Positions 23,696 to 25,429 of a stretch of 26,445 nucleotides of DNA are shown here, piece by piece; position 1 is the stretch's first letter, and the number at the start of each line of letters is the position of its first letter. The notes under the pieces are model-generated. The model searched no databases. It worked only from the letters and a program-made list of their open reading frames with translations, and was not told the DNA's origin. The stretch lies in UHGV virus genome UHGV-0139945; one strand, given 5' to 3'. Position numbers and translations under genes: made by a program. The DNA is from a virus.

Positions 23696-25429
23696 ATGGC
23701 AAATTCAATAACCAAACTAAAAAAAATAAATGTAGTAAAATTCCGAGGTCTAAAAGATATAAATATAGAATTTGGCTCTCGCCTAACTGTTATTTGCGGT
23801 AAAAATGGCACGTCTAAATCAACTATCCTTGGTATTATCGCTCAAATTTTTAGTTTTTCAAAAGACTTGTCCAAGAACCCTGAGGTGGATTTAACCCAAT
23901 ATAAGACATTAACAAATGGCAGCTTCAAGTCAGCTTTCAATGAACATTTTAGACTTTCAGAACAGTTTGATACTGCCGGTTCAATGGAAGTAAAGATCAG
24001 TGTCTATGATGGTGCATCTAACAAACATCTTGAAAAACTAACTTTGGGTCTGTACAGCTCCGTTGACAGAGCAAAATCAAGACCAATAGTCAGGGGTAAC
24101 GATGCTATACCAGGGAAAAATCAAAGTAGAAACGTTACCCATCCTGTAATTTTTTTAAGCTTAGCCAGACTCCTTCCGATTACTCTTAGGACTGATTACT
24201 CGACAAGGGATGTACAGTATATTGCTGAGAACTCTGATGACATAAGAATAATGAGCAATCAACTTTTACTTAAAAACAATGGATGTTCCGTGACAGCTAC
24301 AAAAGGTACTATCGATTCAATGGTCGTACATGGTGATAATTATGATCATCAATCAGTATCTGTCGGCGAAGATAATGTAGGTCAATTAATTCAAGCATTT
24401 TTTTCATTTAAACGATTGAAGGAAATTTATGCTGATTATCATGGTGGGATATTATTAATTGATGAGGCAGATGCTGGTCTTTTTCCTGCGGCCCAATTAG
24501 AACTTATTAACATCCTCGCAAAAGCAGCTAAAAAATATGATTTGCAAATAATCATGACTTCACATTCCCCATTGATAATAGAAGATATATACAATCGATC
24601 TAAACAAGACAATAATGCTTTCAAGACAATATATCTTACAGATACCTATGGAGGCATTAAAACAAAAGATAATCTTTCATGGGCTGATATCAACGCTGAC
24701 TTGCATGTTGAAACTGTAAAAATAAATGATGACATTAGTCTTCCAAAAGCTAATGTTTATTTTGAAGATAAAGAAGGCTTCGATTTCTTCAAACAATTGA
24801 TAACGGACAGAAAAATAAACAAAATATTGAACCCACTGGGAAACATCAATATCAGCTGTACTGCTATACTGGATTTAATGGCGAGGAAAATCCCTGAGTT
24901 TACAATTAAAAGCTTGGTAGTCTTAGACGGTGATGTTGCTAATGATAATAGTGACAATGCGAAGAAAGCAAAGAAAGAGAAAAGCTTATGCTTACTTCCA
25001 AACGCCCTTCCTCCAGACCAAATGATTTTTGAATTCTTATACAACTTACCTCCTGATGATAAATATTGGAACAATCAAAATAGATTTACAAAAGCTGTTT
25101 TTTTTAAAATAGCAAAAGATATAATCACAACACTAAAAATAGGAAATCATTCTTTTAACTTACAAACCTCGATAGATAATTATAAGAAAACAAACAAAAA
25201 TTATGGTGGAGTGGTTAGAAAGCTATTTAAAGACTTCGCCCATACTCCTGAGTTCCTAGCACAAGTTAAAGGGCGTGTTAAAGATCATCCCTATCGATAT
25301 TGGGTCGAGAAACACCCTGTAGAGTCCGATAATTTCAAGCATGAATTAATCAAAAATCTTAAAATTATTATGACAAATGGACATGGTGTTGACTCTGCTA
25401 CTATCACTTCGTATCTGTCTGGCAACTGA
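23696..25429 (+). CDS. OLD/GajA-like ABC-type ATPase with C-terminal TOPRIM-like domain, 578 aa
   Basis: Start taken at MANSITKLKKINVVKFRGLKDINIEF; Walker A GKNGTSKST, Walker B LLIDEADAGLF, H-loop TSHSP; C-terminal EG..D (YFEDKEGFDFF) and DxD (VVLDGDV) about 50 aa apart as in TOPRIM; AT-rich codon usage unlike the prophage. Confidence 0.75.
   Translation: MANSITKLKKINVVKFRGLKDINIEFGSRLTVICGKNGTSKSTILGIIAQIFSFSKDLSKNPEVDLTQYKTLTNGSFKSAFNEHFRLSEQFDTAGSMEVKISVYDGASNKHLEKLTLGLYSSVDRAKSRPIVRGNDAIPGKNQSRNVTHPVIFLSLARLLPITLRTDYSTRDVQYIAENSDDIRIMSNQLLLKNNGCSVTATKGTIDSMVVHGDNYDHQSVSVGEDNVGQLIQAFFSFKRLKEIYADYHGGILLIDEADAGLFPAAQLELINILAKAAKKYDLQIIMTSHSPLIIEDIYNRSKQDNNAFKTIYLTDTYGGIKTKDNLSWADINADLHVETVKINDDISLPKANVYFEDKEGFDFFKQLITDRKINKILNPLGNINISCTAILDLMARKIPEFTIKSLVVLDGDVANDNSDNAKKAKKEKSLCLLPNALPPDQMIFEFLYNLPPDDKYWNNQNRFTKAVFFKIAKDIITTLKIGNHSFNLQTSIDNYKKTNKNYGGVVRKLFKDFAHTPEFLAQVKGRVKDHPYRYWVEKHPVESDNFKHELIKNLKIIMTNGHGVDSATITSYLSGN

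Follow-up and report, generated by a model that had tools for sequence, protein, structure and literature searches.

UHGV virus genome UHGV-0139945 was analysed over a stretch of 26,445 nucleotides (nt), here called the window, which belongs to a temperate phage and includes genes for terminase, an O-like replication protein, Ant and a CI-like repressor. Next to the integrase gene of this phage lie two genes on the plus strand. The first specifies a 577-amino acid (aa) protein in which an ABC-type ATPase is followed by a divergent TOPRIM-like domain; the second, which starts 79 bases downstream of it, specifies a 293-aa DNA methyltransferase of the Dam-like D12 class. On balance we think it probable that the former is an OLD-superfamily-like protein which, with the methylase, makes up a mobile, two-gene, methylation-coupled and restriction-like anti-phage cassette. 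Genome annotations describe the pair only as "AAA family ATPase" and "DNA adenine methylase". The coordinates of the genes, motifs and neighbouring features are collected in Table 1.

Table 1. Features of the ATPase-methylase cassette and of the adjoining integrase region
Feature	Residues	Position in window	Strand	Remarks
Coding sequence, 577-aa ABC ATPase / TOPRIM-like protein		23696..25429	+	starts MANSITKL; 595 aa if read from the upstream ATG at 23642
Walker A / P-loop GKNGTSKST	35-43	23798..23824	+	K41 invariant; within AAA_15 match
Putative ABC signature SVSVGEDNVGQ	220-230	24353..24385	+	~25 residues before Walker B
Walker B LLIDEADAGLF	253-263	24452..24484	+	D256 and E257 invariant; within AAA_21 match
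H-loop TSHSP	288-292	24557..24571	+	H290 invariant
Divergent TOPRIM-like alpha/beta domain	~347-450	24734..25045	+	predicted strands 352-356, 378-381, 407-410 and 431-433, with helices between
E357-D358	357-358	24764..24769	+	C-terminal end of strand 1; candidate TOPRIM catalytic Glu; invariant 43/43
D411-G412-D413 (DxD)	411-413	24926..24934	+	C-terminal end of strand 3; candidate metal ligands; D411 and D413 invariant 43/43
P440-[D/E]441-Q442	440-442	25013..25021	+	after strand 4; P440 invariant; 441 always Asp/Glu
C-terminal all-helical region	~460-577	25073..25426	+	absent from shorter relatives (~500-520 aa)
Intrinsic-terminator-like hairpin GGCTTTAT...ATAAAGCC, then T8		25442..25474	+	intergenic; read from the sequence
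Promoter-like site		25454-25482		upstream of methylase gene; TGGCCA, 17-nt spacer, TATACT, upstream TG (extended -10); overlaps hairpin
Coding sequence, 293-aa D12-class N6-adenine DNA methyltransferase		25509..26390	+	partner gene; assigned from Pfam, PADLOC and motifs
Prophage tyrosine integrase		22472..23638	+	Pfam Arm-DNA-bind_2 and Phage_integrase; phiNP annotation
Excisionase open reading frame		22293-22511		directly upstream of integrase; overlaps its reading frame start by 40 nt

The two genes and the gap between them

Read from its first ATG, the open reading frame (ORF) occupies positions 23642..25429 (+) and would specify 595 aa. No Shine-Dalgarno-like sequence precedes this ATG. 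The sequence AAGG is found 8-11 nt 5' of the ATG at 23696, and most homologues are 577 aa in length and have the N-terminus (MAN...) that this second start provides. For these reasons the start at 23696 is the likelier one, and the 595-aa form was judged less likely. An earlier note on this gene, which ascribed to it the domain architecture of class 1 OLD / GajA proteins, gave a length of 578 aa and set it beside P2 Old, for which its figure of 586 aa was correct. The full-length homologues show identities of up to 93%, and in PHROGs the protein matches phrog_3940 ("unknown function"; 1.9e-188).

Pfam analysis of the protein gave AAA_15 (4.6e-16) and AAA_21 (2.8e-12), both over the ATPase motifs, and since the motifs lie inside significant matches they are not chance resemblances. 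They are invariant in an alignment of 30 sequences with identities down to 49%. Walker A, signature, Walker B and H-loop together make up the N-terminal ABC-type ATPase found in the OLD family, and the ATPase is apparently competent. The signature-like motif, in which S220, V221, S222, G224, E225, D226, N227, G229 and Q230 are invariant, owes its putative designation to its position. The structural matches of the ATPase part are to the ATPases of TsOLD (the class 1 OLD protein of Thermus scotoductus), GajA and PtuA. All the motifs quoted in the earlier note were recovered, with Walker A near the N-terminus as it said; Walker B and the H-loop, which it put around residue 300, are at ~255 and ~290. 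An insert in the ATPase (positions 84-168) contains many invariant Arg, His and Asn residues.

The partner gene, which the earlier note overlooked, specifies a product with a Pfam MethyltransfD12 match (4.3e-17) and with PADLOC matches to PD-Lambda-5_B over its full length (5.1e-123) and to the Type II model MTase_II (8.6e-107). It carries the AGGAG S-adenosylmethionine (SAM)-binding motif at residue 39 and DPPY at 194-197, as would be expected of an active DNA methylase. Because a hairpin followed by T8 and a promoter-like site are located between the two genes, the methylase may have its own transcription. A scan of the sequence reported a minus-strand version of the same hairpin as well as the promoter-like site. 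In related loci of Pseudomonas aeruginosa, Yersinia and Escherichia coli a gap of ~70-90 nt is kept.

The C-terminal domain

Conservation in the C-terminal domain was assessed with 43 diverse sequences cut free of the ATPase, the mean column identity of which is 28%. The sole invariant columns are E357, D358, D411, D413, P440 and W458. E360 is kept in 38 of the 43 sequences, position 361 (Gly here) mostly has Ala, and D363 shows no conservation. It follows that of the two acidic elements named in the earlier note the DxD element (SLVVLDGDVAND, residues 406-417) holds, and that the "EG..D" element (VYFEDKEGFDFF, residues 354-365) was read three residues off, the conserved Glu being E357. The spacing of about 50 residues which it considered typical of TOPRIM domains is borne out: there are 54 residues from E357 to D411, compared with 55 in P2 Old (E398 to D453) and 56 in HEC-04 (E319 to D375; bioRxiv 10.1101/2024.01.29.577857). 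Judging from the alignment, this TOPRIM-like acidic centre appears to be under strong purifying selection. P440-[D/E]441-Q442 could provide an extra metal or substrate contact.

The AlphaFold model of the full-length protein has a mean predicted local distance difference test score (pLDDT) of 87.4. A Foldseek search of the PDB with it found TsOLD (6p74) as the best match (E 2.4e-11; 569 aligned columns), with GajA (8u7i_A, 8sm3_A) in second and third place and then many PtuA chains. The comparison with OLD and GajA structures proposed in the earlier note therefore comes out in its favour for the protein as a whole, and not for the domain by itself, for which Foldseek gave no significant match. 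A separate model of residues 326-577 (pLDDT 90.2; predicted template modelling score 0.87) consists of strand-helix repeats followed by an all-helical region. The shorter relatives lack this last region, and the second tier of matches covers only profile positions ~6-150. When the full-length family profile was compared with that of the P2 Old family, hhalign returned a collinear alignment at 95.5% probability, in which E357 is paired with E398 and D411xD413 with D453xD455, with low local confidence. Against single P2 Old sequences hhalign aligned the Walker B/H-loop region only.

The 43 ATPase-free domains were also scanned with the 5027 defence hidden Markov models (HMMs) of PADLOC. HEC-04 was matched by 28 of them (best 1.5e-7) and is the sole family matched by most; six matched the retron ATPase-Toprim_I-B model and one AriB, and there were otherwise two single weak matches. 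The DxD region is part of the segment aligned with positions 361-405 of the HEC-04 profile, where D375/D377 are expected. Defence by HEC-04 requires these two residues, E319 and the Walker A lysine K62 (Payne et al., bioRxiv 10.1101/2024.01.29.577857). We read the C-terminal domain as a strongly diverged TOPRIM-type domain, homologous to HEC-04 and to the class 3/4 branch of OLD proteins, and not as a canonical OLD-like TOPRIM. Three cluster representatives of 283-285 aa (P0129, P0130 and P0131) comprise the C-terminal TOPRIM-like and helical region only, matching at positions 40-280, and may be PARIS-like split forms, or else fragments or frameshifts.

Pairing, prophage setting and relatives

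A neighbourhood scan with one genome per species gave 80 loci from 80 species, among them gamma- and beta-proteobacteria, Bacteroidota, Mycobacterium, Geobacter, Listeria and Acidobacteria. Of these, 78 contain a member of the window methylase's family (median E 3e-126 with a six-sequence profile), and the other two are contigs which end right after the ATPase gene, so that all 78 informative loci are paired. In 74 cases the methylase gene follows the ATPase gene immediately and in the same orientation, the matched regions being a median of ~46 nt apart. The location within the prophage varies. Of 5426 complete E. coli genomes, 85 have the pair at ~85% identity. In an e14-like E. coli prophage at icd it takes the int-att position, as it does in the window; in P. 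aeruginosa prophages it adjoins a cI-like repressor gene, in Yersinia prophages it lies between Q and holin, and in Halomonas the gene order is reversed. It is also found in Klebsiella, Acinetobacter, Mycobacterium and others. The pairing is obligate despite these different prophage positions and both gene orders; that it might be special to enterobacterial prophages is rejected by the 80-species scan. The conservation of the methylase (~50% identity across phyla) together with that of the ATPase insert suggests, speculatively, one fixed specificity.

DPPY is kept in 76 of the 78 methylases. The remaining two, from Symbiopectobacterium sp. (L012) and Listeria rocourtiae (L088), have ORFs that match only the first 157-180 profile positions, and here the methylase gene may be disrupted beside an apparently intact ATPase gene. 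Should this be real, it would bear on the toxicity of the nuclease in the absence of the methylase.

Over both cassette genes (23000-26445) the G+C content is 0.33-0.37, compared with ~0.50-0.55 in the rest of the prophage (~0.52). This drop points to a recently acquired moron from a source of low G+C. The excisionase, integrase and cassette genes lie in a region that shares 88% identity with the right end of Citrobacter phage phiNP, and since the phiNP record ends 70 nt past the match, the cassette is placed between int and the attachment site. The identity of 88% continues right through the methylase gene; in the GenBank record (OR565852) the ATPase gene is nevertheless the last one annotated and the methylase ORF (9110-9990, corresponding to 25509-26390 of the window) is unannotated, and the phiNP paper lists the former only as "ATPase". 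The integrase gene stops 57 nt before the ATPase start, so that transcription from int may continue into the cassette.

The methylase links the pair to PD-lambda-5, which was found in strain ECOR7 and described as "ParB/HEPN, methyltransferase" (Vassallo et al. 2022, PMC9519451). That system protects against all but one of ten phages, the T-even phages being hit hardest; its authors regarded it as a compacted prophage "RM+Abi" (restriction-modification plus abortive infection) system, and it had to be cloned in a host from which the mrr region had been removed (PMC9519451). We located a genuine copy in E. coli KSC207 (positions 2092-4551 of the locus). It belongs to a P2-like prophage, where the genes for replication endonuclease and portal flank it, and so occupies the hotspot which holds old/tin in P2. 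Its 501-aa gene A product matches PD-Lambda-5_A at 6.9e-168 and its methylase matches PD-Lambda-5_B at 7.9e-122. The window methylase is 51% identical to the latter. Both systems share the methylase family (component B), the layout of effector gene, ~70-80 nt gap and methylase gene, and variable prophage hotspots as their habitat. They differ in the effector, which is ParB/HEPN in PD-lambda-5 and ABC ATPase plus TOPRIM-like domain here: hhalign gave a probability of 0.3% between the window ATPase and the gene A product, the two being unrelated, and no PD-Lambda-5_A model was among the best PADLOC matches of the window. The ATPase was accordingly rejected as a PD-Lambda-5_A component, and the pair, in which only component B matches, cannot be counted as PD-lambda-5. 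Tools which need both components would therefore not call the cassette.

In a metagenome contig (SRR29082275_590081, positions 146-4114) the first gene of a three-gene operon specifies an ATPase/TOPRIM-like protein of 518 aa and the third a D12 methylase that again belongs to this family; the gene between them specifies a ParB protein of 512 aa related to PD-Lambda-5_A (phmmer 9e-13). From the KSC207 pair, the window pair and this operon we conclude that a single family of methylases accompanies either effector, or both at once, and that the cassette is an effector-swapped relative of the validated PD-lambda-5 system.

By sequence the closest relative of the ATPase is HEC-04/IbfA, with which it shares the order of ABC ATPase and TOPRIM domain. 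HEC-04 is the top PADLOC match of the E. coli homologue, in one stretch from Walker B through the DxD region. The window protein, however, scores 2.8e-17 in three short stretches, which is far below member level, and its C-terminal part alone scores 0.0065-0.015. HEC-04 proteins are ~494-518 aa in length compared with 577 aa here, where there is an extra C-terminal helical region of ~115 residues, and HEC-04 is a single-gene system whereas the present protein has an obligate D12 methylase partner. The two are thus homologous without the window protein being a member of the family. IbfA, a homologue of HEC-04 from IncI1 plasmids, makes cells less viable but does not lyse them (PMC12111858). Searches of plasmids by tblastn with the domain and with the E. 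coli homologue produced no match to IncI1 ibfA.

The class 1 OLD proteins (P2 Old, TsOLD 6P74, Vibrio cholerae OLD, E. coli YbjD) likewise combine an ABC ATPase with a TOPRIM-type domain in one polypeptide of ~580 aa, and P2 Old is prophage-borne too. Class 1 OLD is a single gene without a conserved partner (PMC10568477), and the V. cholerae protein nicks DNA (PMC12392090). In GajA (class 2 OLD) an ABC ATPase is again joined to a TOPRIM domain, but here the GajA HMMs match nothing beyond the stretches around Walker A and Walker B, GajA does not appear among the sequence-profile matches to the PDB, and no GajB/UvrD-like helicase gene adjoins the ATPase gene, the neighbours of which are the integrase and methylase genes; none was seen in the related loci inspected. 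The earlier note, which merged class 1 with GajA, was right about the overall architecture and not about membership: the partner gene excludes class 1 and the missing helicase excludes GajA. PARIS (class 4 OLD) has separate ATPase and TOPRIM genes, AriA and AriB, in place of the single fused ORF found here. In contrast to the retron I-B ATPase-TOPRIM (class 3 OLD), there is no reverse transcriptase gene or noncoding RNA near the window gene, and the partner is a methylase. The resemblance to Type II restriction-modification (RM) systems lies in a stand-alone DPPY adenine methylase, with possibly its own promoter, tightly linked to a putative nuclease; the difference is that this nuclease would be ATP-dependent and TOPRIM-like.

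Function of the cassette

In the explanation which we favour, the cassette is a low-G+C moron which a temperate phage carries at its integrase end. The methylase would mark the DNA of the lysogen and the prophage, and the TOPRIM-type domain would be a metal-dependent nuclease. The ATPase part is expected to bind and hydrolyse ATP and to act as sensor and switch, such that the E357/D358...D411xD413 centre would cut nucleic acid once unmarked invading DNA, or the loss of methylase activity, is sensed. We slightly favour DNA over tRNA as the presumed substrate. A further step, which we put forward tentatively and consider possible rather than probable, is that the pair represents a new type of RM, in which the restriction enzyme is one ATP-dependent protein whose active site is of the TOPRIM type and which reads the absence of the N6-methyladenine made by one highly conserved Dam-like methylase, prophages having spread it to at least 80 species of several phyla.

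A number of observations weigh against this explanation or against its reading of the C-terminal domain. Neither the window protein nor its C-terminal part gave a TOPRIM-type Pfam match, and nor did any of 41 distant relatives. PF20469 (OLD-like_TOPRIM), which is found in P2 Old (1.2e-17) and in every full-length P2 Old relative among the matches listed, is absent from all 71 family members scanned. With the domain alone, HMM searches of PDB sequences found nothing, hhalign against the P2 Old family remained below 1% probability, and Foldseek ranked TsOLD fifth at an E of 1.1. No DNA-recognition domain was identified in the putative nuclease. Two shorter relatives (~500-520 aa, without the last helical region) stand alone with no methylase; another of this size follows a methylase gene beside hsdR, and two more are on contigs too short to tell their neighbours. 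P2 OLD and AriB are reported to be tRNases (bioRxiv 10.64898/2026.07.10.737580; PMC11464382), and an effect strongest on T-even phages, as with PD-lambda-5, is unusual for a classical restriction enzyme (PMC9519451). Lastly, literature searches found no description of the pair, and PHROGs assigns no function to phrog_3940.

The chief alternative is an abortive-infection guard, namely a latent tRNase or suicidal nuclease, like P2 OLD, PARIS AriB or PrrC, held off by the methylase or by normal methylation. The methylase would then be a guarded sensor or antitoxin, and the nuclease would fire when a phage inhibits it or the supply of SAM, or brings in anti-restriction proteins. The tRNase relatives, the abortive behaviour of IbfA (PMC12111858) and the T-even bias of PD-lambda-5, which its discoverers themselves termed "RM+Abi" (PMC9519451), give this model real weight, as does the fact that the domain has no sequence-level relatives other than HEC-04, the retron I-B ATPase-TOPRIM and AriB. 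Against it stand the intact DPPY of nearly all the methylases, of which a need to mark DNA is the simplest account, and the lack of any identified tRNA-binding feature, and we regard it as rather improbable. It is unlikely that the C-terminal domain is instead a non-nuclease, that is, a receiver- or Rossmann-like binding or regulatory domain in an ATP-driven methylase accessory (loader, specificity factor or regulator) or in a prophage addiction or maintenance module. The failure of Foldseek and of Pfam with the domain would agree with this, but the invariant columns of a very divergent alignment are the acidic residues of the TOPRIM type (Glu at the end of strand 1, DxD at the end of strand 3), the HMM matches of the isolated domain are essentially to ATPase-TOPRIM defence families, and its TOPRIM alignments extend over 145-155 residues compared with ~90 for receiver domains.

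Least probable is a stand-alone DNA nickase or nuclease of the class 1 OLD or GajA type, under ATP control and with the methylase as a coincidental neighbour. Length and domain order are those of P2 Old, the Foldseek and hhalign results with the full-length protein and its family lead to TsOLD, GajA and P2 Old, and the NCBI name of some homologues is "ATP-dependent nuclease". A coincidental methylase, on the other hand, would hardly adjoin the gene at every informative locus, across phyla and in both orders, and neither PF20469 nor an adjacent UvrD-like helicase is found, the GajA HMMs matching no more than the ATPase motifs.

If the restriction-like explanation is true, real defence is provided by a prophage gene pair which is very common and which tools of the PADLOC type overlook, since of its two halves just the methylase fits a known model. 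Such a cassette would join OLD-like ABC-TOPRIM effectors with methylation-based marking of self and non-self, so far separate lines of work, and would offer the OLD field a two-gene model for what licenses a TOPRIM nuclease and for the choice between DNA and tRNA as its target. Lysogens would be predicted to gain superinfection exclusion and an extra, prophage-conferred N6-methyladenine methylome. The known catalytic folds of restriction endonucleases are PD-(D/E)XK, HNH, GIY-YIG, PLD and half-pipe, and TOPRIM would join this small set were the pair indeed a new RM type; the PD-lambda-5 methylase would in that event be a hub which swaps effectors (ParB/HEPN, ABC-TOPRIM, or both).

The early region of the same prophage contains three more DNA methyltransferase genes in a row (PHROG matches of 1e-94 to 1e-119) with an HNH endonuclease gene between them, at 7071-8123, 10439-12409, 12402-13304 and 9381-10442, all on the minus strand. 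With the partner gene this brings the number of methylase genes to four within 26 kb.

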